Part shown: positions 1,403 to 38,694 of the stretch, one piece after another
How positions within the stretch are numbered: the stretch's first letter is position 1
Layout of the letters: each line of letters begins with the position of its first letter
From: an uncultured Verrucomicrobiae bacterium
Lineage (GTDB): Bacteria; Chlamydiota; Chlamydiia; Chlamydiales; Rhabdochlamydiaceae
Direction of reading: 5' to 3'
NCBI GenBank assembly: GCA_963818965.1
Contig: CAWFUG010000009.1
Coordinates: 98,212 to 162,211, forward strand
Length of the DNA stretch: 64,000 nucleotides
Notes under the pieces: model-generated
Database searches by the model: none
What the model was told of the DNA's origin: nothing
Seen by the model: the letters and a program-made list of their open reading frames with translations, nothing else
Made by a program: the position numbers and the translations under genes

Positions 1403-3261
1403 ATGCGAAAAAACCCAAACTACCTCGCTTTCGTGCCGAAGCTCTTTACCTGTCTTTTTCAGGAGCCTTACAATTGGCACATGTTGAGAAAAGATCTCCT
1501 TGCGGGGGCTACAGTAGGGGTCGTAGCTCTTCCCTTGGCGATGGCATTCGCGATCGCATCGGGGGTCCCCCCAGAAAAGGGACTCTATACAGCCATCATC
1601 GCGGGATTTTTGATCTCATTATTCGGAGGGAGTCGAGTACAGATTGGAGGGCCGACGGGCGCCTTTGTCGTCATCGTCTATAGCATTGTCCAAAGGCAGG
1701 GGTATGAGGGGCTCCTCCTGGCTACTTTGCTTGCTGGAGTGATCCTTCTCATCGCCGGATTTGCGCGCTTAGGCACGTTGATTAAATACATCCCCTACCC
1801 GTTAGTGACGGGGTTCACCTCCGCGATTGCCCTCATCATCTTCTCCTCTCAGGTCAAAGATTTTTTCGGACTGCGATTAACTGAAGTTCCCGCCGATTTT
1901 CTTTCGAAGTGGAAGGCTTTTTTTCAGGCGGCAGGGACGGGAGATCTGTGGACTTTAGGGGTGAGTGCTTCGACTCTTGCGCTGATTCTCTTCATCCGCC
2001 GATTTTTTCCGAAGATTCCTTGGGGAATCGTCTCCATCGGCGTAATTACTCTTCTCGTCGCTTTGTTCCACATTCCTGTCGAGACGATTCAGAAGCGCTT
2101 TGGAGAGATTCCACACATGTTGCCGACACCCGGGCTTATACCCCACTCGGTCAGAAACTTGGAATTTGGGCTGCGTGAAAGCTCCCGCGATTCCACGATC
2201 GGGGAGGGGGCCAGTATTGAGGAAATACAGGCCCCTGCCCCGATCGTAGAATCCCGGGGGTTTGACGCGCCCAAATTCCAAGTTTCTGACCGAGTGGGGT
2301 ATACCCCTTTTTCTTGGGATTTCGCGAAGTTGCAGCAACTCTTTCCCGATGCGATGACGATCGCTTTACTCGCTGGAATAGAATCGCTCCTCTCTGCGGT
2401 GGTCGCCGATGGGATGATCGGGGGCGCCATCGATCGAACTGCGAACTCATCGCTCAGGGACTTGCTAACATCGGCTCTTGTTTTTTTGGAGGCATCCCTG
2501 CCACAGGGGCGATCGCTCGGACGGCTGTCAACATTAAGTCGGGCGGGAGAACTCCGATTGCTGGGATCGTGCATGCGGCCACGCTGCTTCTGATCATTTT
2601 GATGCTCTCTCCTGTCGTTAGCCTCATTCCCTTGGGCGGTCTGGCCGCTGTGCTCGTCATGATCTCCTGGGATATGAGTGAAATCAAACGATTCCGCCGC
2701 CTGTTTCAGGCGCCAGCAGGAGATATCGCTGTTTTACTGACCACTTTTTTCCTGACTATTTTCATCGATTTATCGGTTGCTGTCGCCATCGGGATGATCC
2801 TCGCAGCCTTTCTCTTCATCAGGAGAATGAGCGAATTATCCAAGGTCGTTCCGATGACCTCCCTGATGAAAGAGGATGAGGAGGAGATAGAAGACCCCGA
2901 TGCGATTTCCAACAAAACAATCCCTGCCTTAGTAGAGGTGTATGAGATCGATGGGCCTTTCTTTTTCGGGGTTGCAGACAGCCTGCAAAACCTGCTATTC
3001 CAGTTGGAAAAGCCTCCCAAAGTCTTCATTTTGCGGATGCGAAAAGTTCCCGTGATCGATGCCTCTGGACTGCATGCCTTAAATGAATTTTACGATCGCT
3101 GTATGAAACGGGATACGCAATTGATCTTATCAGGAGTACGCCGGGAACTCTACAACTCGATCCAGCAATATGGGATTGAGAAAAAAATTGGCCAGAAAAA
3201 TATCGTCTCCCATATCGATGCGGCTCTAAGGCGCGCCGAAGATCTCCTCAAATCTGTTTAG
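1403..3261 (+). pseudogene. SulP-family anion transporter with C-terminal STAS domain. The frame is broken once at a G-run and the gene carries an in-frame palindromic insert (pseudogene or 1-nt assembly error).
   Basis: ORFs 1403..2593 and 2314..3261 together give a full SulP: LRKDLLAGATVGVVALPLAMAFAIASG; AGIESLLSAVVADGMIGG then, in the next frame, RHRSNCELIAQGLANIGSCFFGGIPATGAIARTAVNIKSGGRTP; and a STAS-like tail. Reading the GGGGG at 2420-2424 as six G restores ...DGMIGGRHRSN... Confidence 0.8.
2138..2302. repeat. 165-bp palindromic element lying in frame inside sulP
   Basis: Positions 2138-2170 ATACCCCACTCGGTCAGAAACTTGGAATTTGGG are the exact reverse complement of 2270-2302. The interior is an imperfect palindrome. 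The length is 55 codons with no stop in the sulP frame. Confidence 0.85.
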
Positions 3262-4134
3262 TACTTTCCTGGGTGAGATGAAGTGACGCCACTGGGTGTT
3301 CTTAAATCTCGAAGGGGGAAGCCACCACGGGGGTAGGGCGAGTTGTCCGCGCTTCCAGTCGGGGCGCCACAGACGCATCCGTTTCTCATCGCTCGCGATT
3401 GTCACGGTGGGAAGATCTAGATTTGAGCCTAAATGTCCGAGAAGAGAATCATTTCCGATCACAAACCCCGATTCATAGACAAATGCGGCAAGTGCGCCTA
3501 AATTCGGAAAATCTATACTCTCAAATGCGTCGCATTTCCACTCCAAGCGTTCCTGAGGGCTCATACAAAAGATGGGGGAGAACCCCTTCGCGCACAGTTT
3601 CTTCGCTAGAGAAAAATAAGAAGAGAGCAGCCAGTTCTTCGCCGTCTCTCGGCTAAACGGGTGGAGGATGACCCGTTTTACGTATTTGCGATGTGTTAAA
3701 TGGACGGGGGGAGCGATCCCGTTGTTTTTGGAGGGAAATTTGAGCTGTAATAGGGTACCGATCGATTTACCGATGTTTTCCGCCATCGGTAGATTAGGAT
3801 CGAATACGAAATCATTGGGAGTTAAAGGGGCATGCTTGTGCGGGGAATAGGTCGGATAAAACATGCTGACGATCGGCCTCAGTTCTTTGAGGAATGTAGC
3901 GATCCGAGGAGAATTGTCATTCTCTACGACGATGAGATCAAAAGAAGAGAGGAGGGTCGTTGTCGGGTTTTGAAGAGGGGAGAGGCATTGCCCAGGAAAC
4001 CAAGAGGCGAGTTCGGGCAAGGGGTCGTGGAAGGTCGTGACATGATAGCCTGCCTTTTTCAGATGATGGGAGGCGATCATCATCAAGAGACCATCTCCAA
4101 TGCCCAAAGCGGGTAACACAGCAGCTTTTTTCAC
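3226..4134 (-). CDS. Glycosyltransferase family 9-like protein (heptosyltransferase-like)
   Basis: 302-aa ORF with a GTG start. The N-terminal LPALGIGDGLLMM and C-terminal GFVIGNDSLLGHLGSNLDLPTVTI resemble GT9 signatures. It has a 36-nt convergent overlap with the sulP 3' end. Confidence 0.55.
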   Translation of the reverse strand: MKKAAVLPALGIGDGLLMMIASHHLKKAGYHVTTFHDPLPELASWFPGQCLSPLQNPTTTLLSSFDLIVVENDNSPRIATFLKELRPIVSMFYPTYSPHKHAPLTPNDFVFDPNLPMAENIGKSIGTLLQLKFPSKNNGIAPPVHLTHRKYVKRVILHPFSRETAKNWLLSSYFSLAKKLCAKGFSPIFCMSPQERLEWKCDAFESIDFPNLGALAAFVYESGFVIGNDSLLGHLGSNLDLPTVTIASDEKRMRLWRPDWKRGQLALPPWWLPPSRFKNTQWRHFISPRKVLNRFEEIFGAP

Positions 4135-4144
4135 GGGTGCTCCG

Positions 4145-4250
4145 TTTTGGGTATGAGTCTACAGGGAGTTGCCTTAAGATTTCGAGAAAATTTTAGTGGG
4201 ACGCATCCTGCGCGGCCCTACGGGCAACTTTTGAGTCTACTTGGCTATAA
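4145..4250. repeat. Degenerate copy of palindromic repeat family A
   Basis: Positions 4207-4249 CCTGCGCGGCCCTACGGGCAACTTTTGAGTCTACTTGGCTATA match the loop plus one arm of the 7751-7813 element. The partner arm (about 4145-4173, TTTTGGGTATGAGTCTAC...) is decayed. Confidence 0.5.
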
Positions 4251-4263
4251 GCGCGCGGGGTAT

Positions 4264-4299
4264 ATAAAAAAAGCCTGTTGGGGAGACCCCAACAGGCTT
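4264..4299 (-). terminator. Rho-independent terminator of the groEL paralogue
   Basis: On the minus strand: AAGCCTGTTGGGG-TCT-CCCCAACAGGCTT followed by TTTTT, about 34 nt after the groEL stop. Confidence 0.7.
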
Positions 4300-4332
4300 A
4301 AGAAGCATTGCGAAGAAGCGCTCTTATTTGCG

Positions 4333-5916
4333 CTATTCTTGCTCAGGGGCGTTGCCGATTAGCGCCTCAGAGAGAATGACGACGCCAGCAGTAGAGGCTG
4401 CGTACCGCAGAGAGTTTTTGATCATCTTTGCGGGGTCGATGATACCTGCCAGCAAGAGATCTTCCACCTTTTCTGATACGGCATTGAATCCGAAGGAAAG
4501 GCCTTTAGAGAGGACTTCATCCAAGATGACAAAAGCATCGAGACCTGTATTGAGGACGATCTGTTTCAGGGGCGCTTCACATGCCTTGAAGACGATCTCA
4601 GCACCGAGTGCCTCATCTCCCTTCAAATCGAGAGTGCAGTTTTTGCTTGCGCGTAAGAGTGCGACGCCGCCTCCGATGACGATCCCCTCTTCGATCGCAG
4701 CGCGCGTCGAATTGAGGCTATCTTCAAAGAGTTGCTTTTTCTGTTTGAGCTCAGGTTCTGTCGCAGCGCCGATGCGAAGGACGGCGACGCCTCCAGAGAG
4801 TTTCGCTTTCCGCTCATCGAGTTTTTCCTTATCATAAGGGCTCGTCGTGCGGGCGATTTCAGCTTCGATGTGAGCGACGCGCTCGTGGATTTCTTTAGAA
4901 CTTCCTCGGCCATTGACGATGGTCGTTTTGTCTTTAGTGATCTGGATTTTTTCAGCAGATCCTAAGGACTCTACAGTGGCATCTTTGAGAGAAAGGCCTC
5001 TTTCCTCAGAGATAACGACGGCTCCCGTCAAAATCGCGAGGTCTTCTAGGAGCGCTTTACGGCGATCGCCAAAGCCAGGCGATTTTACGGCGCAAACTTT
5101 GAGGGTTCCGCGTAGTCGGTTGACGACGAGAGTTGAGAGAGCATCCCCTTCGATCTCATCTGCGATGATGAGCAGTTCCGTCGCTGTCGAGGCGATGACT
5201 TGGAGGATGGGGAGGATCTCTTGGATAGAGGAGATCTTCTTATCTGTAATCAAGATTTTAGGGTTGTTCATCTCGACGCTTAACAGCTCTGCATTTGTGC
5301 AGAAATAGGCGCTGACGTACCCGCGATCGAACTGCATCCCTTCGACCATTTCGATGGAGGTCTCTGTGCTCTTTCCCTCTTCGATCGTAATGACGCCCGC
5401 CTTACCGACTTTTGCAAGTGCATCAGCGATCAGCGAACCGATCTCCTCAGTTCCAGAAGCGGAGGCCACGGCGATATTGCGCACTTGGGTGTCACTTTCG
5501 ATCGCAATCGCCATTTTTTCCAATTCGAGGATGATCGCATCGACCGCTTTATCCATTCCTCTCTTTAAACCAATCGGAGAAGAGCCTGAGGCGATGTTCT
5601 TAACCGCAGCTTTTACGAGCCCGCGCAAGATGACAATACTCGAAGTCGTCCCATCTCCACAATTTTCCTTCATCTTGCTCGCCGTCTCTTTTCCCAAAGC
5701 AACCCCCATATTCGCATATTGGTCTTTGAGTTCGACTTCTTTGGCGATGCTGTTGCCATCGTTTGTAATTCTGGGAGCACCCCAAGAGGCTTGCAGACCG
5801 ACATTTTTGCCTTTAGGGCCGAGCGTCACGGAGACGACATCTGCCAGCATATCGATCCCTTCGCTCAACTTAGCGCGCGCTTCTTCTTCGAAAATGAGTT
5901 CTTTAGCTTGGGACAT
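4333..5916 (-). CDS. groEL: Chaperonin GroEL (Cpn60) paralogue with no adjacent groES and no GGM tail
   Basis: 527 aa. AKELIFEEEARAKL..VTLGPKGKNV.., GDGTTS (canonical GDGTTT), ..VKSPGFGDRRKA... The position next to murF matches chlamydial groEL3 as I recall. Confidence 0.85.
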   Translation of the reverse strand: MSQAKELIFEEEARAKLSEGIDMLADVVSVTLGPKGKNVGLQASWGAPRITNDGNSIAKEVELKDQYANMGVALGKETASKMKENCGDGTTSSIVILRGLVKAAVKNIASGSSPIGLKRGMDKAVDAIILELEKMAIAIESDTQVRNIAVASASGTEEIGSLIADALAKVGKAGVITIEEGKSTETSIEMVEGMQFDRGYVSAYFCTNAELLSVEMNNPKILITDKKISSIQEILPILQVIASTATELLIIADEIEGDALSTLVVNRLRGTLKVCAVKSPGFGDRRKALLEDLAILTGAVVISEERGLSLKDATVESLGSAEKIQITKDKTTIVNGRGSSKEIHERVAHIEAEIARTTSPYDKEKLDERKAKLSGGVAVLRIGAATEPELKQKKQLFEDSLNSTRAAIEEGIVIGGGVALLRASKNCTLDLKGDEALGAEIVFKACEAPLKQIVLNTGLDAFVILDEVLSKGLSFGFNAVSEKVEDLLLAGIIDPAKMIKNSLRYAASTAGVVILSEALIGNAPEQE

Positions 5917-5954
5917 GGCTTAAATCTCCTTAGGTATAGATTGATGTGTCCACG

Positions 5955-5983
5955 AGTATAGGAAAAATTGAGTTATCTCGCAA
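5955..5983 (-). promoter_or_regulatory. Candidate sigma70-type promoter of the groEL paralogue
   Basis: The minus strand reads TTGCGA-17 nt-TATACT, about 39 nt upstream of the ATG. AAGGAG lies 8 nt before the ATG. Confidence 0.35.
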
Positions 5984-6058
5984 TGGCTATACCCTTAAGT
6001 GGGCGAAAAGGTAGAGGGTAAAAATTTTGCTTGGCCGAATAATGGTTTCAAGAAAGTT

Positions 6059-6877
6059 TTAAGCGTCATTTAAAAGTTTATTGTATACTTCTCGCTTAGG
6101 GAGGCCGACGATCTCTGCAGCGAGCTTGATGGCCTCTGTCTTGTGAAGGGAAAATTCATTTTGCAGGTAGGCGACGAATTCTTTTAACGGGAGGTCACTT
6201 GTCTCTTTTTCCTCTCCGCAACCAGAGATGAGAAGGACCATTTCTCCCCGGGCAGGATGGGTTTTAAAATGGGTAAGGAGCTCTGTCGCATTGCCAAAAA
6301 GACACTCTTCATGCCGTTTGGTCAACTCGCGCGCCACGCAGAGCTTTCTTTGGGGAGCGAGCTCTTCTAGTCTTTCTAAAGTGTCAGAGATTCGGTGGGG
6401 CGCCTCGTAGCTGACCGTGGTCCCTTTGTAGAGAAGGGCGTGGAGTAACGCGTGGCGCATGTCTTGGTGGGTCTTGGGCAAAAATCCTAAGAACTGAAAA
6501 GGGATGGGTGGAAATCCCGAAAGGGTGAGAGCCGTCACGAGAGCGCAAGCTCCGGGGATGGCAGAGACGGGGATCCCCCGTTCATGGCAGCGGGCGACGA
6601 GCGATTCTCCAGGGTCTGCGATGAGGGGAGTGCCGGCATCGGAGATCAGCGCGATCGTCTTTCCCATTTCGAGATCTTCGAGGATCCGCTCTTCGCTCGC
6701 TTGCTCTTTGAACTTATGAAAAGATTTAAGAGGGGTTTCGATCTGGTAATGATTGGTCAGGATACGGCTGTGCCGCGTGTCTTCGCAGAGGATGTAATCG
6801 CACCCCTTTAGGGTGCTGACCGCCCTAAACGTGAGATCTTCGAGATTTCCAATGGGTGTGGCGACGAGGTATAGCAC
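6059..6877 (-). CDS. rsmI: 16S rRNA (cytidine1402-2'-O)-methyltransferase RsmI
   Basis: LYLVATPIGNLEDLTFRAV, ILCEDTRHSRIL, ISDAGTPLIADPG. The ORF-track N-terminus (to 6979) runs through tRNA-Cys, so it was trimmed to the GTG at 6877. An out-of-frame ATG at 6890 lies across an A7 run. Confidence 0.8.
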   Translation of the reverse strand: MLYLVATPIGNLEDLTFRAVSTLKGCDYILCEDTRHSRILTNHYQIETPLKSFHKFKEQASEERILEDLEMGKTIALISDAGTPLIADPGESLVARCHERGIPVSAIPGACALVTALTLSGFPPIPFQFLGFLPKTHQDMRHALLHALLYKGTTVSYEAPHRISDTLERLEELAPQRKLCVARELTKRHEECLFGNATELLTHFKTHPARGEMVLLISGCGEEKETSDLPLKEFVAYLQNEFSLHKTEAIKLAAEIVGLPKREVYNKLLNDA

Positions 6878-6909
6878 TTTTTTTGGACATTTTTTTGGGG
6901 AACAAAAAA

Positions 6910-6980
6910 GGTGGCACCCAGATTCGAACTGGGGAATGGAAGCTTTGCAGGCTTCTGCCTTACCACTTGGCGATGCCACC
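6910..6980 (-). tRNA. tRNA-Cys (anticodon GCA)
   Basis: Folded by hand from GGTGGCA TC GCCA AGTGGTA AGGC A GAAGC CTGCAAA GCTTC CATTC CCCAG TTCGAAT CTGGG TGCCACC. It is 71 nt, CCA is not encoded, and a T-run follows. Confidence 0.9.
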
Positions 6981-7735: not shown

Positions 7736-7750
7736 ACAACACCTCCTAGT

Positions 7751-7813
7751 ATACCCAAGTGGACTCAAAATTTGGCCGTAGGGCCGCGCCAAATTTTGAG
7801 TCCACTTGGGTAT
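7751..7813. repeat. Palindromic repeat family A (best copy)
   Basis: ATACCCAAGTGGACTCAAAATTTGG (7751-7775), loop CCGTAGGGCCGCG, then CCAAATTTTGAGTCCACTTGGGTAT (7789-7813). The 25-nt arms are perfect. Confidence 0.9.
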
Positions 7814-7886
7814 GAAATAAAAAAACTTAAAACTTGCTCCTTTTTCTTTCAATGGGTATTTTTCTCATTTTCATAGGCGGGTAGGG

Positions 7887-9203
7887 ATGACAGAACGTAC
7901 TTTAAATCAACTCCTCGAAGGGAGATTTTCAGGATTTCAGGTCGATAGTAGACTGATCACTCCAGGAGATCTTTTTTTCGCCCTCAAGGGGGAAAAAGTA
8001 GATGGGCACGCATTCTTAGCTGCTATTAAGCAGAAAGGGGCTGCAGCAGCTGTCATCTCCAAAACTTACCGAGGGGAGCTCTACGGATTGAACTGCATCG
8101 CCGTAGACGATGTCTTAGCGACCCTCCAGAGCCTCGCTCAAAGAGTTCATGCGATCCGGTCTCCACGCGTAATCGCCGTAACGGGATCTGTAGGAAAGAC
8201 CACGACCAAAGAGTTCATCGCGACGCTCTTGGAAAAAAAATACAAACTCGCCAAGACACCGGGAAACGCCAACTCCCAAACGGGCTTACCTTTGAGCATA
8301 CTCAATGCAAAAGGGGATGCAGAGCTCTGGGTTCTAGAAATGGGGATGAGCGAGCCGCAAGAGATCACACGCCTCATCGCAATAGCGCCCCCAGAAATCG
8401 CTCTTCTAACGCGGATTGCTTTGGCCCACGCGGAATCTTTTCCCGACGGACTCGAAGGGATCGCAGCTGCAAAAGCGGAAATCTTTTCCCACCCTCTTAC
8501 GCGCCTAGGAATTTTGAGCGCTCAAGCCGCCTCCTATAAAGCGCCTCGGGAGAGGGGTGCCTTTCCCAAAATCTGCTATGCACTAGAAGAAGAGCACACC
8601 GACGCAGATGTCCTTCTTTTCAAAGAGGGACAATCCCTTCGCATCCGCGAAGAAGGAAAAGAGTCGCCACTTTTCACTCTGCCTTTTATAGCCTCTCATC
8701 TCTCTGAAAATTTTCTGGGTGCCTCTATCGTCGCGCGCAAAATGGGAATGGAATGGGAAGAGATTTTCGAGCGGGCTAAAGAGTTGAAACTGGAGAAGAA
8801 CCGCTTCCAGTTCTTGGAAAAAAATGGGGTGATCTTCCTCAATGACTCCTACAACGCCAATCCCGCATCGATGCAAGCCGCGCTCTTCAATCTCCCCACT
8901 CCCGCCAAAGGAGGAAGGAAGATCGGCGTTTTAGGCGCCATGAGGCCGCTCGGTACTTTCGCAGAGGAGAGCCACCGCCAACTCGGCAGCATGGCCCTCG
9001 AATGCGTCGATCATCTTCTCTGTCTGGGGGAAGAATGTGCCCCGATGATAGAGCTCTTCGAAAGGGCGGGACGCCCTGCAGAGCTCCATGAGAGTGTAGA
9101 AGCCCTTAAAACACGCGTCCACGCCCTAGCGCTACCAGGGGATGTCGTCCTCATCAAGGGCTCCAATTCGAACCAGCTGTGGAAGATCCTCGAAGAGGTC
9201 TAG
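7887..9203 (+). CDS. murF: UDP-N-acetylmuramoyl-tripeptide--D-alanyl-D-alanine ligase
   Basis: 438 aa; VIAVTGSVGKTTTKEF, LNDSYNANPASM; located in the dcw context. Confidence 0.9.
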   Translation: MTERTLNQLLEGRFSGFQVDSRLITPGDLFFALKGEKVDGHAFLAAIKQKGAAAAVISKTYRGELYGLNCIAVDDVLATLQSLAQRVHAIRSPRVIAVTGSVGKTTTKEFIATLLEKKYKLAKTPGNANSQTGLPLSILNAKGDAELWVLEMGMSEPQEITRLIAIAPPEIALLTRIALAHAESFPDGLEGIAAAKAEIFSHPLTRLGILSAQAASYKAPRERGAFPKICYALEEEHTDADVLLFKEGQSLRIREEGKESPLFTLPFIASHLSENFLGASIVARKMGMEWEEIFERAKELKLEKNRFQFLEKNGVIFLNDSYNANPASMQAALFNLPTPAKGGRKIGVLGAMRPLGTFAEESHRQLGSMALECVDHLLCLGEECAPMIELFERAGRPAELHESVEALKTRVHALALPGDVVLIKGSNSNQLWKILEEV

Positions 9204-10582
9204 GATCCAAATGACTCTCTCCATTTTGCCATATAAGCCAAAAGGAACCAGTACTTTATTTTGAGGTTTTCTGCGGCTGTGCGTTTCAAAGCATGCACTT
9301 CATACATTCCTTTGAGTCTTTCAGCAACGCCGGCAGGTAGCTTGTCATCCTCTATGCTAATTGCACATGAGGGGGCAAGTTCCAAGATTTCAGCAGGTAC
9401 GGCTGTGAGTTGATGAAGGTAATAGAGCGTGAGCTCTGTCAATGCCGTTAAACGCCCCAGTTCAGTGGGTAGTGTGATAAAGCTGTTGTTTGAAAGGTCG
9501 AGCTCTCTCAATCCGGTTAAAGAGGTCATTTCAGTAGGGAGTACCGCGAGGTTGTTATCTGAGAGGTTGAGCTTTTGCAAGTCCGTTAAACGCCCGATTT
9601 GGGTGGGTACGGCTGTGAATTTGTTTCCTGAGAGGTTAAGGGATTGCAATCCTGTTAGACACCCAATTTGGGTGGGTATTTCTGTGAATTTATTTCCCCT
9701 GAGATTGAGCTGTTGTAATGCAGTTAAACACCCAATTTGAGTGGGTAGGATGAGTCCCTCATAGTGGAGATGAAATGTCTTCAATCTTTGGACGAGCGCG
9801 GAAATTTGAAATAAACGAGAGGGAAGTGGTGGAGGTGACTGGTGGGATGCATCCAAGCGTAAACGTAGTGTCTTTTCATTACGATCTTTTACGAATGTGT
9901 AAATGGCACGCTCGAATTGGTCACACTGTTCTCCTTTTTCCGGCCAGAGGGAGATGTCTTTGGACCAAGGCTTGAGAATAATGGGTAATTTATCATCAGG
10001 GATGCAGTTAGGAGAGTAGGATTGAGCCGTTAATGCCTGCCCTCCGAAGTTATCCCTCTCTCGGGCTCCCCTGTGTTTTTGATCTCTTTGTGTGGGGACT
10101 TGAGGGCTCTGACTCTGTATTGCAAGGATTTTTAAGTTACATCTTTCTAAAATCCGATCGGGTTGTCGTTTCAGAGTCTCTTCTACTTTCGAGAAAAAAC
10201 TCAATTTTTTGCGGATATTGAGATGTTGGATCTTTTGGGCGATCCTCTGTAGAGTGGCGATGTCTTCTGTAGTATTTGTTCGATAAAATAGTTCTTCGAG
10301 CTTTGTGATATCTCGATCGATTTTTCTTTGCGCTCGTTCGATGGTGTCTTTGACTTTAGTCTCAACGCCGTAGAACTGTAATTGATCGAGCTCTTCGGGT
10401 GTGCTCTCTTGGGCGATTGTTCTCAATGTACGGCGGGCCAACTGATTGATTTCTTTGGCCATTGCATAAAAGGAGAGATCATCTTGAGGAAGGGCTGCCT
10501 GATCACAAAGCTCTTCCAAGTGTCTAAGGGCTGCAGCTCTTCTTTCTAGAGATTGAAAGGTATTTCTGAAACTAACAGACAT
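9200..10582 (-). CDS. Leucine-rich-repeat protein with coiled-coil N-terminus (eukaryote-like, effector candidate)
   Basis: 460 aa. Six 23-aa LRRs, such as LTALQQLNLRGNKFTEIPTQIGC, LTGLQSLNLSGNKFTAVPTQIGR and LTDLQKLNLSDNNLAVLPTEMTS, encoded around 9355-9781. Confidence 0.8.
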   Translation of the reverse strand: MSVSFRNTFQSLERRAAALRHLEELCDQAALPQDDLSFYAMAKEINQLARRTLRTIAQESTPEELDQLQFYGVETKVKDTIERAQRKIDRDITKLEELFYRTNTTEDIATLQRIAQKIQHLNIRKKLSFFSKVEETLKRQPDRILERCNLKILAIQSQSPQVPTQRDQKHRGARERDNFGGQALTAQSYSPNCIPDDKLPIILKPWSKDISLWPEKGEQCDQFERAIYTFVKDRNEKTLRLRLDASHQSPPPLPSRLFQISALVQRLKTFHLHYEGLILPTQIGCLTALQQLNLRGNKFTEIPTQIGCLTGLQSLNLSGNKFTAVPTQIGRLTDLQKLNLSDNNLAVLPTEMTSLTGLRELDLSNNSFITLPTELGRLTALTELTLYYLHQLTAVPAEILELAPSCAISIEDDKLPAGVAERLKGMYEVHALKRTAAENLKIKYWFLLAYMAKWRESFGS

Positions 10583-14213: not shown

Positions 14214-15328
14214 GCCGATTCTCCTGTTTGTTTCTCATTTCAGTGATTGTCTTGTTTGCGCTCGGGCTCGTCATGATTTTCAATACGAGTTCGGCGGAGG
14301 TTCTCGATCGCTTTCTCGATAAGAGCACCCATCACGCTCTGATCAAGCAGATGCTCTACTCTCTTGTAGGGGGAGTGGGGGCGATCGGAATCTGGTTCAT
14401 CGGGTATCAAAACCTCCTGAAGCTCAGCGGTCCCTTGCTCGTTTTAGGCACCCTTTTACTCATCTCAGTATTCGTTCCTGGAATCGGTCAGCAGATCAAT
14501 GGGGCACATCGCTGGATCAGTCTCTTCGGCAATTCCTTACAGCCCTCAGAATTCGTGAAATTTCTCGTGCCGCTCTATTACATCCACTGCGTGACGTGCG
14601 TGCAAGGTCCTCTACCTCTAAAGTCTTTACTCAAGCTTTTAGGGAAACTCACTATCCCGCTGGGATTAATCCTCATCGAGCCCGATAATGGGACTGTCTT
14701 TATCGTATTGATGACGATGCTCATGCTGTTCATTTTGACGCGAATGAGAATTCTCTATTGGGCGGTTCCTCTCTTTGTCCTTTGCTTAGGCGGAGGGATC
14801 GTCTCTCTGCGCATGCCGCATGTCTCTGATCGGATCCATATCTATTTGCATCCAGAGTCTGATTTAAAGGGAAAAGGACATCAACCTTATCAGGCTAAAA
14901 TTGCGACAGGTTCAGGCGGTTTATTTGGAAAAGGGTTAGGGGAGAGTTTGCAGAAGCTCGAATACCTGCCCGAGGCGCGCAGTGATTACATCGCCGCTAT
15001 CTTTGCAGAGGAATGCGGCTTTGTAGGGATGTGCGGTTTGATCTGTCTTTACCTGTTGATCGCCTATGCGGGATTTTCGATTGCGCAGCGCGCTTCTTCT
15101 GTTGAGGGATTTTATACCGCAGCTACGGTGACTTTTTTGATCTGTTTTCAGGCATTTTTAAATCTCGGCGTCGTCTCTGGCTTATTGCCGAGTAAGGGGA
15201 CGAATCTCCCTTTTTTCAGCCAAGGGGGATCTTCGTTACTCGCTAACCTCTTAGCCTGTGCTCTGATTCTCAATATTGCAAAACCTTCATACGCACTGAA
15301 AGTTCAAGGGAAAACTTATGGAGATTAA
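14210..15328 (+). CDS. ftsW: FtsW/RodA (SEDS) family peptidoglycan polymerase
   Basis: 372 aa, polytopic; LQPSEFVKF, YQAKIATGSGGLFGKGLGES, SDYIAAIFAEECGFVG, NLPFFSQGGSS. ATGA overlap with the upstream gene. Confidence 0.85.
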   Translation: MSRFSCLFLISVIVLFALGLVMIFNTSSAEVLDRFLDKSTHHALIKQMLYSLVGGVGAIGIWFIGYQNLLKLSGPLLVLGTLLLISVFVPGIGQQINGAHRWISLFGNSLQPSEFVKFLVPLYYIHCVTCVQGPLPLKSLLKLLGKLTIPLGLILIEPDNGTVFIVLMTMLMLFILTRMRILYWAVPLFVLCLGGGIVSLRMPHVSDRIHIYLHPESDLKGKGHQPYQAKIATGSGGLFGKGLGESLQKLEYLPEARSDYIAAIFAEECGFVGMCGLICLYLLIAYAGFSIAQRASSVEGFYTAATVTFLICFQAFLNLGVVSGLLPSKGTNLPFFSQGGSSLLANLLACALILNIAKPSYALKVQGKTYGD

Positions 15329-17780
15329 AATTCTTTTTGCCGCAGGAGGGACAGGAGGTCATCTCTTTCCCGCACAAGCGCTCGCTCAACAGTTAGAAGA
15401 GGCGGGACTTCACGTTTTTTTTGCTGGGGTCGGACTAGATAAGACGGAGTATTTCAATCGCTTGCAGTTCTCTTACCAGGCAGTAGAGGGAGGAACACCG
15501 GCGCGTGGGAGTTTTTGGAAGAGGCTCTCTGGGATCGCTCAGTTGGTAAGAGGGGTCAGGCGGAGTCTAAAAATCCTCTCCAAAGAGCGGCCCAAACTCG
15601 TGATCGGCTTTGGGAGTTTTCACGCCTTCCCTGTCTTATGCGCCGCATTTTTCAAACGGGTCCCTATCGTCTTATTCGAATCGAATGCCGTCCCTGGCAA
15701 GGTCGTGCGCCTCTTTTCTCGATTTGCAAAAGTGACAGCTCTCTATTTTCCCGAAGCAAAGCGCTTTCTTGGAAGCAAGACCATCTCCACGCAGATCCCC
15801 TCTACAAAGGTCTATTCTCAATTAGCAGCAGAAGCAGCGCGCCAAAAACTGGGATTACACCCTGATCCCTTTACGTTGCTCGTCTTCGGCGGCTCCCAAG
15901 GGGCTAAAGCGCTCAATGACCTGATCCTCTCCCTTTTGCCACAACTGAAACAAAAGGGATTAGAACTTCAGCTGATCCACTTTACGGGCAATGAAGAGAG
16001 GGCAGAGGAGATCCGGCTCCTGTGCCAAACTTTAGGCATTCCGGCCTATGTGAAAAAATTCGAAACGCATATGGACGTCGCCTGGAGCGCTGCAGATCTC
16101 GTCCTTTGTCGTTCAGGTGCTGCAACCCTATCAGAGATGATTCACTACGCGGTTCCGGGAATCCTCATTCCTTATCCTTACGCTGCCGATCGACACCAGA
16201 CAAAAAATGCGGAGGTCATCGCTAACCTAGTGGGTGGAGCGAAAATCGTAGAGGAGGGGACTGCGTTTACAGAGCGCGTTTTAGAAAAGATCGAGCCGCT
16301 AGTGGCTCTCGCGTCTCTCGAGCGCAAACAGATGCAAAGAGCCCTACAGATTTATCCACTTAAAGAGAAAAGAGAAAGCCTTGCCTCTCTTGTGCTTAAA
16401 TCCCTGGATCTCACTCCGCCAACGCACCTCTCTGTACCAGAGACCTATCACTTCATCGGCATTGGGGGAATCGGAATGAGCGCCCTCGCACAGATCCTCT
16501 TGCAAAAAGGGGAACCAGTCAGCGGAACAGATCTCAATCCTTCTCCCTTGACAGAAGTGCTCAAAGCACAAGGTGCCTTGGTAGCATCGACCCACGCTAA
16601 AGAGCACGTCCCGAGAAGAGGCTCTATCATCTACAGCACAGATATCAAGGAAGGCAACCCCGAGATCGAACAAGCAAAAGTTTACGATCTAAAAATACTC
16701 CACCGCTCAGAGCTCCTTCGAGAGCTCATGCGCGCTTATCGGCCCCTGTTGGTTTCAGGGACGCATGGGAAGACGACCACCTCTGCCCTCTTGAGTCATC
16801 TGCTCGTTGTAACGGGCAGGGAGCCTAGTTTTGCCGTCGGAGGGATCGTCAAGAGCTTGAAGAGTAACGGGGGGTATGGCAAGGGAGATTATTTCGTCGC
16901 AGAGGCGGATGAGAGCGACGGATCTTTTCTCAACTACTCTCCCTTTGGCGCCATCGTGACCAATTGCGACGGTGATCACCTCGATCACTGGAAAACAGAG
17001 GAAGCCTTGCACCAAGGCTTTGCTCAATTCGCTCAAAAGGTCCACTCTTCAGAGCACCTCTTTTGGTGTGGCGATGACCCTGCTTTATGCGCGTTGGGGC
17101 TCAAAGGCACAGCTTATGGGTGGGGAGAAAATAACGGATTACGCATCCTCTCCGCGCGCCAGGAAGGATGGAAAAATCTCTTTTCTGTATCGTTCGAAGG
17201 TAAATCCTATGAATCGATCGAACTTCCCCTCATCGGTGCCCACAATGTCCTCAACGGAGCCGCTGTCTTTGGGATGGGGCTACGCCTCGGGTTGTCAGAA
17301 GACTTAATCCGTGAAGCCTTCCTCACATTTCAAGGAATTGCGCGTCGGGCGGAGTACAAGGGAAATGTGGGGACTGTCCCCATCTTCGACGATTACGCGC
17401 ATCATCCTACAGAAATTGAGACGACATTAAACGGCTTGAAGCGGGCAATCGATAACCAGCGGCTCGTCGTCGTCTTTCAACCCCATCGCTACACACGCAC
17501 GCGCGACTGCTTTGAAGCGTTCGGCCCAGCCTTGCAAGGAGCAGATCTCTTAGTATTAACCGATATCTACGCAGCACGCGAAGCCCCCATCGAAAACATC
17601 ACCATCGAAACGCTCATTCAAAAGATCCAAGAGCAAACGGGTAAACAGGTCCACTACGCCCCGCGCTCTTTTTTAAGTCGCTTTGTCAGCGGAAAATTGA
17701 CCCCAGAAGATGTCGTCGTCACTCTCGGGGCCGGAGACATCACAAAATTGGGCAGTGAGCTGCAAAATGAAGAGATCTAA
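15318..17780 (+). CDS. murG/murC: Fusion protein: MurG glycosyltransferase (N-terminal) plus MurC UDP-MurNAc--L-alanine ligase (C-terminal)
   Basis: Single 820-aa ORF. MurG part: ILFAAGGTGGHLFPAQALA, VFGGSQGA. MurC part from about 16440: HFIGIGGIGMSALAQILL, VSGTHGKTTTSALL, DDYAHHPTEI. Confidence 0.85.
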   Translation: MEIKILFAAGGTGGHLFPAQALAQQLEEAGLHVFFAGVGLDKTEYFNRLQFSYQAVEGGTPARGSFWKRLSGIAQLVRGVRRSLKILSKERPKLVIGFGSFHAFPVLCAAFFKRVPIVLFESNAVPGKVVRLFSRFAKVTALYFPEAKRFLGSKTISTQIPSTKVYSQLAAEAARQKLGLHPDPFTLLVFGGSQGAKALNDLILSLLPQLKQKGLELQLIHFTGNEERAEEIRLLCQTLGIPAYVKKFETHMDVAWSAADLVLCRSGAATLSEMIHYAVPGILIPYPYAADRHQTKNAEVIANLVGGAKIVEEGTAFTERVLEKIEPLVALASLERKQMQRALQIYPLKEKRESLASLVLKSLDLTPPTHLSVPETYHFIGIGGIGMSALAQILLQKGEPVSGTDLNPSPLTEVLKAQGALVASTHAKEHVPRRGSIIYSTDIKEGNPEIEQAKVYDLKILHRSELLRELMRAYRPLLVSGTHGKTTTSALLSHLLVVTGREPSFAVGGIVKSLKSNGGYGKGDYFVAEADESDGSFLNYSPFGAIVTNCDGDHLDHWKTEEALHQGFAQFAQKVHSSEHLFWCGDDPALCALGLKGTAYGWGENNGLRILSARQEGWKNLFSVSFEGKSYESIELPLIGAHNVLNGAAVFGMGLRLGLSEDLIREAFLTFQGIARRAEYKGNVGTVPIFDDYAHHPTEIETTLNGLKRAIDNQRLVVVFQPHRYTRTRDCFEAFGPALQGADLLVLTDIYAAREAPIENITIETLIQKIQEQTGKQVHYAPRSFLSRFVSGKLTPEDVVVTLGAGDITKLGSELQNEEI

Positions 17781-18841: not shown

Positions 18842-18929
18842 AATTTCACCACAGAGATGGAAAACCACAGAGAGGAAATTCATATTAAAAAATTTCCTCT
18901 CTGTGGTTTTCCATCTCTGTGGTGAAATT
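18842..18929. repeat. Palindromic repeat family B (CCACAGAG element), complete copy
   Basis: AATTTCACCACAGAGATGGAAAACCACAGAGAGGAAATT, loop CATATTAAAA, then the exact reverse complement. The 39-nt arms are perfect. Confidence 0.9.
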
Positions 18930-22419: not shown

Positions 22420-22448
22420 GAGAAAATCCTTAAAAGATAAAATACGGT

Positions 22449-22628
22449 GGGTATATAGCCCTTCCACCTCAATCGTAACCACAAGCAAACCGATTAAAAG
22501 CCTCAAAATTCGAATCAAAGGTCGGGGTCAATATTGAATTTAATATTGACCCCGACCTTTGATTCGAATTTTGAGAACTTTTCATTCGGTTTTCTTGGGT
22601 ACGATTGAGGTGGAAGGGGTATATGCCC
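22449..22628. repeat. ~180-bp long palindrome (perfect 34-nt core arms, imperfect outer arms)
   Basis: Core 22502-22535 CTCAAAATTCGAATCAAAGGTCGGGGTCAATATT, loop GAATTT, then the exact reverse complement at 22542-22575. Outer arms 22449-22500 and 22576-22628 pair with a few mismatches and one indel. Confidence 0.85.
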
Positions 22629-22680
22629 AAGTGGACTCAAAAGTTGGCCCTACGGCCCACTTTTGAGTCCACTTGAGTAT
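22620..22680. repeat. Palindromic repeat family A copy, abutting the long palindrome
   Basis: TATATGCCCAAGTGGACTCAAAAGTTGGCCCTACGGCCCACTTTTGAGTCCACTTGAGTAT. Confidence 0.85.
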
Positions 22681-22770
22681 AGACTCAAATTCTCGGTAGA
22701 TGCTATACCAGAGTCGTTTTTGACATTTAGGAATTGTCCCAGGATCAACTCTAAACTTAAATTTTGAACT

Positions 22771-23001: not shown

Positions 23002-23018
23002 CAACCCTCTTCTTTTTC

Positions 23019-23096
23019 CTTCCCCTCTGTGGTTTCCCATCTCTGTGGTAAACACATTATCACCACAGAGGTGGGAAACCACAGAGGGGAGGGAAG
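23019..23096. repeat. Palindromic repeat family B copy (arms in permuted order)
   Basis: CTTCCCCTCTGTGGTTTCCCATCTCTGTGGT, loop, then ACCACAGAGGTGGGAAACCACAGAGGGGAGGGAAG. It starts 18 nt after the KH-gene stop. Confidence 0.85.
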
Positions 23097-23115: not shown

Positions 23116-24144
23116 GTGTCAGGTCTTGCGTTCGAAGATAAAGAGTTAAAGCTTCTCCTTCAGCATTTTGCACTCTCTCAAAAAGATCCCCTTTCCCCAC
23201 ATGCCAAAAAGAAAAAAGTGATCGTGATTGCAGGGCCAACAGCTGTCGGTAAGACGCAGTTGTCGCTCATCATCGCACGGGCAATTGGCGGGCATGTCAT
23301 CTCCGCAGACTCGATGCAGGTCTATCGGGGGATGGATATTGGGACAGCCAAAGCTTTACCCCAAGAGCGAGGGAAAATCCCCCACCACCTGATCGACAGT
23401 CGAGAAATCGATGAGACTTACAATGTCGTCGCCTTTTATAAAGAAGCGCATCAGGCAATCCAGGAAACGCTCGATAAAGGAGCCGTTCCGATCGTCGTCG
23501 GAGGAACCGGGTTCTATATCCATGCGCTCATTTACGGCCCCCCTCATGGCCCTCCCTCCGACTCAGAAGTGCGTACAGCCCTCGAGGAAGAGATGAAAGA
23601 GCTCGGCCCCGAACCGCTCTTTCAGCGTTTAAAGGAATTAGACCCTGAATACGCTCAGACGATCACCTCAGGGGATCGCCATAAGATCATCCGAGGGTTA
23701 GAGATCATCGCGCTGACGAAGATGAAGGTCTCTGAGTTGAAGACGACGACATCAGAAGCCTTAAACACTTACGATTTTCGGTGCTGGTTCATGTACTACC
23801 CCCGGGAGATCCTCTACCCGCGGATCGAGATGCGCTGCGATCAGATGATCCAGCAGGGATTTTTAGAAGAGGTCAAGCGGTTGGAAGGGGAGGGGCTCAT
23901 GAATAATCTCACGGCGTCTCAAGCGATCGGCTACCGGCAGTGCTTGGAGTACCTGCACTCTTCGCGTAGCCAGGAAGATTGGGATCGTTTTGTGACTACC
24001 TTCAAACAGGCGTCGCGCCGGTATGCGAAGCGGCAGTTCACTTGGTACCGGAAAGAGCCCCTGTTTCGTTGGGTCAATCTCGAGAAAATTCCCCTGGAGC
24101 TCTCTGCTGAGCTCATCATTCAAGACTACGAATTGAGTTTCTGA
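23116..24144 (+). CDS. miaA: tRNA dimethylallyltransferase
   Basis: GTG start; VIAGPTAVGKTQLS, SADSMQVYRGMDIGTAK. Confidence 0.9.
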   Translation: MSGLAFEDKELKLLLQHFALSQKDPLSPHAKKKKVIVIAGPTAVGKTQLSLIIARAIGGHVISADSMQVYRGMDIGTAKALPQERGKIPHHLIDSREIDETYNVVAFYKEAHQAIQETLDKGAVPIVVGGTGFYIHALIYGPPHGPPSDSEVRTALEEEMKELGPEPLFQRLKELDPEYAQTITSGDRHKIIRGLEIIALTKMKVSELKTTTSEALNTYDFRCWFMYYPREILYPRIEMRCDQMIQQGFLEEVKRLEGEGLMNNLTASQAIGYRQCLEYLHSSRSQEDWDRFVTTFKQASRRYAKRQFTWYRKEPLFRWVNLEKIPLELSAELIIQDYELSF

Positions 24145-30423: not shown

Positions 30424-30486
30424 ATACCCACAAGTGAGCTCAAAAGTTCGCGCGGTCCTACGGCCAACTTTTGAGCTCACGTGGCT
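30424..30486. repeat. Palindromic repeat family A copy
   Basis: ATACCCACAAGTGAGCTCAAAAGTTCGCGCGGTCCTACGGCCAACTTTTGAGCTCACGTGG, 10 nt after the upstream stop codon. Confidence 0.8.
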
Positions 30487-30553
30487 CAAATTCGCAATTC
30501 CTGACCGGGCGCAGTATATCTGGTTGTTAGGAACTTGCCTTGTTCTCCGGTTT

Positions 30554-34913: not shown

Positions 34914-36779
34914 ATGTCAAAAGTAAGATTAAAAATTTACAATACAGAGACGCGGGAAAAGGAAGAGGTCATCGCGAAAGAGGGCAATCTGATCCGGATG
35001 TACACCTGCGGGCCTACGGTCTATAACTTTGCCCATATCGGCAATTTCCGCACCTATGTCTTTGAAGATCTTTTGCGCCGGACGTTGCAAATTCTTCGGA
35101 TTTGAAGTCATCCAGGCGATGAATCTAACGGATGTCGATGACAAGACGATCAAAGGTGCTCTTGAAGAGAAAGATCTCCCTCGAAGCGTTTACAGAGCCG
35201 CTTCAAGAGAGCTTTTTTCGAAGATCTTCAGACCTTGAACATCGAGCCGTGGAACACTATCCGGCAGCGACCGATTATATTCCCGAAATGATCGAGATCA
35301 TCGAAAAACTCGTGAAAGAAGGAACCGCTTACAAGGCGGCGGATGGCAGCATCTATTTTGCAATCCGCAATTTCCCTCCTATGGCCGACTTATCCCATCT
35401 GCATCTGAGTGAGCTCAAAGAAGGCGCCTCTGAGCGTCTCATCCGATGAGTATGACAAAGAGAATGCGAGCGATTTTGTCCTCTGGAAGGCTTACGATCG
35501 AGAGCGAGACGGGGAGATCTTCTGGGAGAGCCCCTTTGGCACGGGGCCGCCCGGGCTGGCATATCGAATGTTCTGCAATGGCGATGAAGCTCCTCGGCGA
35601 GACAATCGATATCCATGTCGGCGGGGTCGATAACATGTTTCCCCACCATGAAAATGAGATCGCCCAATCGGAAGCTTGCACTTGCTGCCGCTTTGTGCGG
35701 TACTGGATGCATGCAGAGCATCTCCTCGTCGACCACAAAAAAATGTCCAAGAGCCTGGGCAATTTCTTTACCTTGCGCGATCTGCTCGAAAAAGGGTACA
35801 GCGGTAAAGAGGTGCGCTATATGCTCTTACAAACCCACTACCGCACCCAGCTCAATTTCACTTTTACAGGCTTAAGCAGTGTACGCGCCACTTTGGAGCG
35901 GTTGAGCGATTTCATCCGCCGTTTGCAGGCAATTCGGCATGAAAAGATGCATAAAGCGCTCGACATCATTCTAGAGAAAGCCCTCCCTGAGGGCTCGGAC
36001 AAAAACAGATCAGAGAAAGGATCCTCTTTGACATGCAGGCAGAGAAAGCTAAAGATATCTTGGATCCCGCTCTTTTGGAGCCGATCTTAGAGCGCTCTCT
36101 TGCCAAAGTAGAAAAAAAGGGAAGTGTCTTGCAGCGCATTTTAGCAGAAACCAAAGAAGTGAAGGAAAAAGCAGCGTTAAAGGCTGTTTTGGATCGCTCC
36201 CTACTCGATCCTGCAGTCGCCCAAAAAGTCATCAGTCAAGTCGTCCACAAGGTACGCGATGAAAAAAATCGAGACCTACTCGATCCCCTCATCGTAGCGC
36301 CCATCTTGCAAAAGATGCTGTATGAACAACGCACTGAAGACCAAAAAGTCGTCGAAAAAGTCACACGCGATCTCAAGGTAAAAAGAGACCACGGATTCGT
36401 CTTACCGATCATCGAAAAGACGATCCAGGAGTTTGCAATGGCTCTTGGCGATGATTTGAATATCTCTGCTGCTTTAGCAGCCCTTTTCGATATGGTCCGA
36501 GAGGTAAATACCCTGTGCGATCAAGACAAGATCGGGATATCAGAGTCGGAAGATGTTCTCGATTGTCTCAAAAAAATCGATCAGGTCTTAGGCGTGTTGC
36601 CTTTGGAAGCACAAGAAGAGGAGATCCCTATAGAGCTGGTGAATGCGCTGCATCGCCGAGAGGTCGCTCGCGCGGAAAAGAATTGGCAGGTAGCAGATGA
36701 GTGCCGCGCCCTCATTGAGAAGGCCGGATATTTCATCGAAGACACCCCACAGGGTGCAAGACTAAAGAGGCGAGAATGA
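34914..36779 (+). pseudogene. cysS: Cysteinyl-tRNA synthetase interrupted by about 7 single-nucleotide frame shifts (pseudogene or poor local sequence quality)
   Basis: Pieces are spread over three frames: [27 protein letters not shown] | [28 protein letters not shown] | ISLEAFTEPLQESFF | EDLQTLNIEP | VEHYPAATDYIPEMI... | [18 protein letters not shown]...FG | [12 protein letters not shown]...[11 protein letters not shown]...KMSKSLGN... | C-terminal ...DDLNISAALAALFDMVREVN. Confidence 0.85.

Positions 36780-37115: not shown

Positions 37116-38694
<1,579 letters not shown>

Follow-up and report, generated by a model that had tools for sequence, protein, structure and literature searches.

A palindromic repeat element read in frame within a sulP gene of a Chlamydiota-like bacterium

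The 64,000-nucleotide (nt) stretch analysed here (the window; positions 98,212 to 162,211 of contig CAWFUG010000009.1, from an uncultured bacterium of the Rhabdochlamydiaceae) contains a sulP gene for a transporter of the SLC26/SulP family, and the reading frame of this gene runs through a long DNA palindrome. Does the palindromic segment belong to the transporter, or is it an inserted element, and if so of what kind? An initial annotation of the sequence had proposed that a palindromic element had entered the gene in frame, behaving like the Rickettsia palindromic elements (RPEs). It was found that the 165-nt segment is an insertion, a repeated element and non-native sequence. [quoted passage not shown] The host gene and the parts of the element are located as follows (aa, amino acids; pI, isoelectric point).

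1403..3261, + strand: host gene sulP (SLC26/SulP family, Sulfate_transp and STAS domains), 619 aa after frameshift repair
2137..2303, + strand: complete palindromic element including the terminal TA, 167 nt (nhmmer family model, E = 1e-51)
2137..2171, + strand: left arm, TATACCCCACTCGGTCAGAAACTTGGAATTTGGGC, 35 nt and 100% complementary to its partner at 2269-2303
2179..2263, + strand: inner imperfect palindrome with loop GAGGA, AGCTCCCGCGATTCCACGATCG ... CGATCGTnGAATCCCGGGG, best-conserved part of the family
2269..2303, + strand: right arm, 35 nt, exact reverse complement of the left arm
2137..2138: left TA, first copy of a putative 2-bp target-site duplication
2302..2303: right TA, second copy of the putative target-site duplication
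2138..2302, + strand: 55 codons in the sulP frame, IPHSVRNLEFGLRESSRDSTIGEGASIEEIQAPAPIVESRGFDAPKFQVSDRVGY, an acidic peptide of pI 4.9

A repeat search returned the two 35-nt arms (2137-2171 and 2269-2303) as 100% complementary, with 97 nt between them. They had first been described as exact reverse complements at 2138-2170 and 2270-2302, which is correct, and they are one base longer on each side. The interior is itself an imperfect palindrome, as proposed, its halves (2179-2218 and 2224-2263) being 83% complementary. The ends of the full palindrome read TA/TACCCC...GGGGTA/TA. No further occurrence of the arm was detected in the window within 3 mismatches, and none appeared in dinucleotide-preserving shuffles of the window (expected 0.00). 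Folding of the RNA of 2131-2309 yielded a single long hairpin of -143.8 kcal/mol, compared with -62.5 +/- 4.0 kcal/mol for shuffles (z = -20.2). In Rfam, only weak matches to generic miRNA-precursor hairpins were obtained, far below the gathering scores.

The net gain of sulP is 165 nt, or 55 codons, as against the 167 nt of the palindrome. The sulP frame crosses the block without a stop, and the peptide, read in sulP as ...ESSRDSTIGEGASIEEIQAPAPIVESR..., is the one originally quoted. Frames +1, -1 and -2 of the element are open and the remaining three are closed; the same pattern was observed in 3 of the 5 other full-length copies described below. The opposite strand is open as well, in agreement with the initial annotation, since both -1 and -2 are free of stops. 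Being shorter than ~300 bp, bounded by terminal inverted repeats and too short for a transposase open reading frame (ORF), the element has the features of a small MITE.

The host protein displays the traits of an SLC26 transporter, namely a Sulfate_transp transmembrane (TM) domain with 7+7 inverted repeats and a C-terminal STAS domain. Its homologues combine PF00916 and PF01740 and include Rhabdochlamydiaceae and metagenome-assembled genomes (MAGs) of Chlamydiota, and its matches in the PDB were SLC26Dg, BicA, prestin and STAS domains. The best homologues (n = 119) are 53-60% identical to it and 529-632 aa long (mostly 555-590), versus 619 aa here. In a MAFFT alignment, none of these 119 had residues opposite query positions 246-300. 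When the 165 nt were removed, sulP read ...MLPTPGLTPFSWDF..., which aligned without gaps to the homologue pattern ...LPxPSLPxFxxxF.... The view that the segments on either side are contiguous in SulP proteins is thereby upheld, the 55-aa segment being absent from 119/119 homologues. It could still be argued that the 55 residues are a native, lineage-specific loop, given that the length of the TM7-TM8 loop varies somewhat among SLC26 proteins. Against this stand the 119 homologues, the near-perfect 167-nt palindrome at the DNA level and the occurrence of the same sequence in unrelated proteins and in intergenic DNA (see below). The probability of a native loop is practically nil; the homologue alignment and the copies elsewhere rule it out. 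An intein or intron was also considered and dropped, without a formal test: catalytic motifs are lacking, the gene models translate the segment, and it amounts to a simple palindrome.

The position of the insert in the protein was evaluated with a structure model. The alignment of SLC26Dg to SulP stops at query residue 241 and restarts at 306. An AlphaFold model of SulP (42 homologues) had a mean predicted local distance difference test score (pLDDT) of 80.2, and its TM domain matched SLC26Dg (5iof_A) with a TM-score of 0.91 and a root mean square deviation of 3.6 A. Residues 248-301 were modelled as coil with pLDDT <50, flanked by helices 207-222/229-233 (TM7) and 307-339 (TM8). In the model, the insert forms a disordered loop that links TM7 to TM8, and the rest of the SLC26-type transporter is well folded and intact; the initial annotation had expected a surface loop. 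SLC26 proteins consist of 7+7 inverted repeats with both termini in the cytoplasm. Because of this topology, the TM7-TM8 linker of SulP would face the extracytoplasmic side.

The same module is present in other proteins. A protein search with the concatenated open frames of the element as query retrieved P0121, P0122 and P0123, apparently from the same assembly. With the resulting four-module alignment, a word-index profile search gave two candidates only, and an exhaustive HMMER search gave 16 proteins at E <= 1e-3. P0140 (RecC), P0141 (PlsX) and P0139, which is P0122 at full length, were added from cluster look-ups. The hosts of normal length are SulP, P0121, P0122/P0139, P0123 (MenC-like), P0140 and P0126; apart from the MenC-like protein and RecC, the non-SulP hosts (three of five) are uncharacterised, the gene of P0122/P0139/P0138 being hydrolase-like. 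In every one of these hosts the module comprises 55 aa, extends from I to Y and corresponds to the +1 reading, I[PL]RPVRNCEFE..SSRDSTIEKGASIEEIQAPFSIVESRGFDALKF.IPDR..Y. That one palindrome-encoded peptide stands in frame in SulP, P0121, P0122/P0139, P0123, P0140 and P0126 substantiates the RPE-like behaviour that had been postulated. In P0123 the insert follows directly after the PLPxF motif; 76 residues are found there, and the o-succinylbenzoate synthase (OSBS) of E. coli has 12 between PLPGFS and LAW. Compatibility with the host fold is seen in SulP, where the site is a loop in the model, and in the MenC-like P0123, where it is a short connection in OSBS.

The module also occurs in the small ORFs P0124, P0125, P0127 and P0128, and weaker relatives of it were detected in other metagenomes. 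In the case of PlsX, the gene model P0141 starts 6 codons upstream of a diverged module at the annotated N-terminus. A gene call that ran on through an element upstream is more likely here than a true N-terminal extension.

The DNA inventory comprised six full-length copies at five loci, one truncated copy and several fragments, with differing flanking genes. In addition to the copy in sulP, the following were located.

L002 10085-10251: full-length copy
L004 8516-8682: full-length copy
L005 8327-8493 and 16361-16528: full-length copies
L003 8099-8263: diverged full-length copy, 165 nt, TATA ends, ~76% identity
L001 3239-3349: truncated copy
Window 30484..30518, + strand: solo right arm, intergenic, fused to a family-A hairpin (see below), matching the recC copy's right arm at 35/35 positions

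The element is therefore present in multiple dispersed copies with unrelated flanks, and further copies stand in frame in unrelated genes, as the initial annotation had anticipated. A solo arm in a recB fragment (L002 12312-12351), 92% identical to the arm of the window copy, sits between the ...QRLF and LVGDPKQSIY motifs and is read through as ~13 extra residues; it is a fossil of the element in a coding region. L003 is a 3.9-Mb contig of a different organism, which encodes cadherin/Big_9 and HEAT-repeat giant proteins, and since it harbours a diverged copy, the family is not limited to one genome. Neither a 20-mer from the arm nor a 22-mer from the conserved loop had an exact match among the GTDB representative genomes, the source and its close relatives being apparently absent there. 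A metagenome scan with the conserved-loop 22-mer gave no match either. The sole metagenome match of a 21-mer from the inner stem (L007) lies in high-GC sequence with no palindrome and was discarded as a chance match.

These copies bear on the question of whether the palindrome is real. The assembly carries indel noise and chimeric long reads can make palindromes, so an artefact such as a fold-back chimera had to be considered. Homologous copies were found, however, on several contigs of two other assemblies, in differing gene contexts. The right junction is contained in a k-mer-based Logan contig (L006), which begins at window position 2274 and confirms it; the contig breaks exactly 30 nt into the right arm, as would be expected of a graph with k=31 at an inverted repeat. 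Furthermore, the insert is exactly 3n long, and its asymmetric interior recurs in conserved form in the other copies. An assembly artefact is thus extremely improbable.

The ends of the copies were then compared. TATA was present at both ends in five of the six full-length copies, the exception being the copy L005_b, which is without the right-hand one. All genic copies with available DNA (4/4) showed the phase NNT/ATA...TAT/ANN. After removal of the 165 nt, a single TA remains in sulP, reading ...PTPGLTPFSWDF.... Since the host frame is restored by removing 165 nt and not 167, one TA belongs to the target. These end sequences suggest a 2-bp TA target-site duplication, in which the empty site, as reconstructed at the protein level, leaves one TA.

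On this basis, the element would have inserted at a TA straddling the sulP codons CTT/ACC and duplicated it, for a net gain of 165 nt, a multiple of three, with a stop-free phase in the orientation found. Because 165 = 3n and this phase has no stop, sulP still reads through, with 55 additional residues. If translated, these may form an acidic, unstructured loop in the TM7-TM8 linker, which joins the two 7-helix inverted repeats, and extra length could be tolerable on the extracytoplasmic side. Insertions that added a stop or disturbed the fold were presumably lost, which would explain the single frame of the genic copies. Mobilisation would proceed in trans, by a separate transposase. Judging by the TA flanks, this may be an IS630-type DDE enzyme that acts by cut and paste.

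All six genic copies are read in +1 (binomial two-sided p = 0.03, a small sample), with -1 needing the same target phase. Unlike the acidic +1 peptide (pI 4.9), that of the -1 reading would be basic (pI ~10) and would contain more aromatic residues, which is a plausible reason for the exclusive use of +1. Alternatively, the module may have been co-opted, so that the acidic peptide or the mRNA hairpin is functional, for instance in regulation by RNase III or as a shared interaction loop. The frame bias itself, in the presence of an open -1 frame, and the acidic rather than basic product would be expected under co-option. The peptide core encoded by the inner stem, RESSRDSTI / IVESRGFDA, is conserved in remote relatives as RESSRGSTI...IVEPRGFDA, and RNase III processing of MITE hairpins is documented for the Correia elements of Neisseria (PMC2229807). 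However, the amino-acid identity of the copies (65-76%) does not exceed their nucleotide identity (~80%), so that no sign of protein-level selection is seen. AlphaFold gives the insert no structure, the host proteins are unrelated to each other, the sample is small, and counter-selection of a basic, aromatic-rich insert can explain the bias. Co-option is accordingly regarded as improbable.

The hairpin is maintained despite considerable divergence. Pairwise, the copies differ by 20-25%, and near-perfect arms are kept in each. Covariation was computed on the alignment of the six copies, in which 95.7% of the cells were paired. Compensatory double changes were observed in 20 of 71 pairs, and 0 of 500 shuffles reached the observed values; when the partner was slid by 1-3 columns as a control, 0-3 compensatory pairs were obtained. 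The changes in the arms were mainly from one Watson-Crick pair to another, with few G-U pairs, which argues for a constraint at the DNA level rather than at the RNA level. This points to a hairpin kept for a DNA-level need, either as terminal repeats or as a hairpin for propagation or mobilisation. An asymmetry of the inner stem and loop, which the copies have conserved, gives the element a defined orientation.

Such hairpin maintenance would also be expected of a REPIN- or IS200/IS605-type element that moves as a single strand by means of a tyrosine (HUH) transposase, instead of a cut-and-paste MITE of the DDE type. The hairpin spans the whole length, the inner stem is the most conserved part, compensatory Watson-Crick changes have kept the arms perfect and left few G-U pairs, and many other small hairpin families exist in the genome. 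On the other hand, the ends carry no GTAG/CGTC tag (criterion of PMC3733652), and the TA/TA flanks, taken with the net gain of 165 nt, are in keeping with a 2-bp duplication, a product that HUH elements do not leave. Repetitive extragenic palindromic (REP) sequences lie outside genes, in contrast to the genic copies seen here, and no RAYT-like gene was detected among the window ORFs scanned. The GC skew was positive at the sulP and L004 copies and negative around the recC copy and thus gives no support to a replication-tied orientation. The HUH route is considered unlikely. A bolder proposal would see in the family a mobile 'protein-loop cassette' of Chlamydiota, with an active process that keeps the two arms identical and with selection acting on the acidic +1 peptide or on the mRNA hairpin. 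Arm identity could then be preserved by hairpin-templated repair or by single-strand hairpin transposition. This would explain why all genic copies use one of three open frames and why the inner stem is conserved in remote relatives from several metagenomes, but it is rather unlikely and is put forward tentatively.

The state of the host gene requires separate consideration, as sulP is split into two ORFs (1403-2593 and 2314-3261) by a frameshift that was overlooked in the initial annotation.

2420..2424, + strand: G5 run at which sulP goes out of frame; with a sixth G the frame continues

Addition of one G at this run regained the conserved ...VVADGMIGGRHRSNCELIAQG... motif. The Logan contig L006 matches window positions 2274-6933 with no gaps and a single mismatch (C2419T), and it has the same G5; the C-to-T difference at 2419 directly precedes the run. 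The right junction and the frameshift are both reproducible, possibly from the same reads. The same mobile element could therefore reside in a decaying sulP pseudogene, its in-frame status being due to chance or a relic from before inactivation. The frameshift itself, the annotation of the gene solely as a 396-aa fragment (P0044) and the recurrence of G5 in a second assembly (L006) are consistent with decay, as is the fragmentation of other genes in the window (cysS in at least five pieces, and a class II aminoacyl-tRNA synthetase). In contrast, the 619-aa frame is otherwise open throughout, 53-60% identical to homologues and intact in its conserved motifs. The other broken genes code for essential aminoacyl-tRNA synthetases, which argues that the sulP frameshift is likewise an assembly error. 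Similarly, the hydrolase-like host gene is intact as P0139 and broken at a run-rich site as P0122 and P0138 (other assemblies). Contig names such as 'contig_1137' suggest a long-read assembler, and homopolymer errors may have arisen in this way. Finally, chance fails to account for the open frame shared by five other genic copies. Overall, the G5 frameshift is probably an assembly error, and a decaying sulP is possible, albeit the more doubtful option. The insertion itself is not in doubt in either case.

Among the other fragmented genes, cysS (34914-36779, +) consists of at least five overlapping frame pieces. Of the class II aminoacyl-tRNA synthetase (Asp/Lys/Asn type; 37116-37643, -), only a C-terminal ORF of 175 aa is left, and no ORF >=150 aa is found at 37.6-39.9 kb. 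Either poor local assembly or decay may account for this region. Elsewhere, sucD (53850-54620) is missing the first ~40 profile positions.

Several observations weigh against the interpretation as a TA-duplicating mobile element in a functional gene. No transposase with matching ends was found among the 40 window ORFs scanned; the ORF that adjoins a palindrome cluster (23116-24144) is MiaA. A DNA-level empty site was not seen among the recovered loci, so that mobility and TA duplication are deduced from the ends and the copies. The frameshift lies 117 nt downstream of the element and the copy may sit in a dead gene, which makes translation of the sulP copy uncertain. Frames -1 and -2 are open and yet none of the genic copies found uses them; for this reason an open frame alone fails to explain the single-frame pattern. 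Conservation is highest in the inner stem and not at the termini, which is unusual for a classical MITE. Finally, the copy counts refer to the recovered loci plus the window, as opposed to the whole source genome, and are lower bounds.

The window (G+C ~48%) is rich in other hairpins. Family-A hairpins of ~60 nt (7749-7815, 22619-22684 and 30427-30483) consist of TATACCCAAGTGGACTCAAAATTTGGC, a loop and the reverse complement, and all are intergenic. The initial annotation had noted that the termini of the sulP element resemble this family; the likeness amounts to a common TATACCC terminus and a loosely similar arm, and it goes no further. At 30427-30518, the right terminus of a family-A hairpin is swapped for the solo right arm of the 167-nt family, a chimera that points to recombination or nested insertion between hairpin families. 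Nested palindromes were also found at 22448-22684, where an outer repeat (22448-22481 / 22596-22629) surrounds a 74-nt perfect-stem hairpin (22502-22575), with a family-A hairpin directly alongside. Such an arrangement suggests insertion of one hairpin element into another. A further palindromic element of ~150 nt (640-790) is intergenic and located upstream of the sulP region; its outer ends are complementary and it has a perfect inner stem of 32 nt (672-703 / 723-754). A second family of hairpins (18842-18929, 23016-23095, 55764-55843 and 62522-62593) is built on ...CCACAGAGATGG / CCATCTCTGTGG..., and each of the CCACAGAGATGG-type hairpins lies just beyond a gene end, like REP elements or terminators.

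With regard to genomic context, the window contains the cluster murF-mraY-murD-x-ftsW-murG/murC with no ftsQAZ after it, an order found in Chlamydia. A domain of MurG (Glyco_transf_28) and one of MurC (Mur ligase) are joined in a single 820-aa ORF (15318-17780, +), either as a true fusion or as the product of an indel. On the opposite strand, an effector-like gene with leucine-rich repeats (9200-10582) interrupts the dcw cluster to which this ORF belongs. At 45849-51468 (-), three ankyrin-repeat paralogues of 623, 634 and 601 aa are encoded in tandem, a feature typical of intracellular symbionts. One protein encoded on the element-bearing sister contig L005 is related to TIGR03076, the 'chlamydial GcvH-like upstream region protein' (E = 4e-55, which falls short of the curated cut-off). 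Together with the SulP relatives named above, these features make Chlamydiota a likely, though indirectly supported, assignment. The 5' end of ORF 6059-6979 (RsmI-like) runs into a tRNA gene at 6909-6980 (-; Rfam, 62.6 bits), and owing to this overlap the true start of the RsmI-like gene must lie downstream.

According to the initial annotation, in-frame colonisation by palindromes was not known to have been described in Chlamydiae. No earlier report of in-frame palindromic repeats in Chlamydiota was found in the literature searched, the coverage of which was incomplete, and a 2024 review of prokaryotic MITEs made no mention of this phylum. The phenomenon is best documented in Rickettsia and is scattered in Coxiella, enterobacteria and Neisseria. 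An unrelated family in a second intracellular lineage would suggest that 'coding palindromes' recur where selfish DNA spreads in genomes of this sort. With its perfect arms, clear covariation and single preferred frame, the element offers a clean test case for the ways in which proteins accommodate or recruit inserted loops and for the maintenance of hairpin repeats. There are also practical consequences. Elements of this kind break k-mer assemblies (L006) and create spurious small ORFs or extended gene models (P0124, P0125, P0128 and P0141), so masking is advised for chlamydial MAGs.

Among known systems, the closest parallel in behaviour is offered by the RPEs, hairpin repeats of Rickettsia that are both intergenic and in frame in many unrelated conserved genes (Ogata et al. 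2000 and 2002, summarised in PMC10969869 and PMC2229807). Both are hairpin repeats of ~100-170 bp from an (apparently) intracellular bacterium, both have intergenic and in-frame genic copies that yield a constant peptide, and both are inserted where the host fold tolerates them. NCBIfam includes domain models for RPEs. The module peptides, in three frames, matched no NCBIfam model at E <= 10 and no Pfam model at E <= 1; in this respect the element differs, having no detectable sequence relationship to RPEs. Further differences are its Chlamydiota-like rather than alphaproteobacterial context, its far more perfect arms (35/35) with clear compensatory covariation, and its consistent TA flanks, those of RPEs being variable.

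The Correia (NEMIS) elements of Neisseria and the pneumococcal RUP elements are TA-flanked MITEs attributed to IS630-type mobilisation, and the Correia form of 107 bp, which has open frames, occurs in fusion with genes (PMC2229807). The likeness extends to a size of 100-160 bp, terminal inverted repeats, TA ends and long stable hairpins in transcripts. In contrast to these, the present element is entirely palindromic with the inner stem as its conserved core, and no sequence similarity was observed. The QMITEs of Coxiella burnetii, enterobacterial ERIC and the YPAL of Yersinia are small palindromic repeats fused in frame to host ORFs (PMC5896051, PMC2229807, PMC10969869). YPAL, with 168 bp and 56 aa, is nearly of the element's size, although its peptide is hydrophobic while that of the element is acidic and hydrophilic; all three belong to other sequence families and other hosts. 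REP and REPIN sequences share hairpin repeats with co-varying halves and the presence of many small hairpin families per genome. They are defined by a GTAG or CGTC tag that ends a 20-40 bp palindrome and by an extragenic location (PMC3733652), whereas the element ends in TATAC(C/T) with neither tag, is larger, genic and TA-flanked, and has no RAYT among the window ORFs. Judged from these sequence comparisons, the sulP insert is a new family of a known kind of element, unrelated in sequence to the RPEs that it resembles in behaviour.

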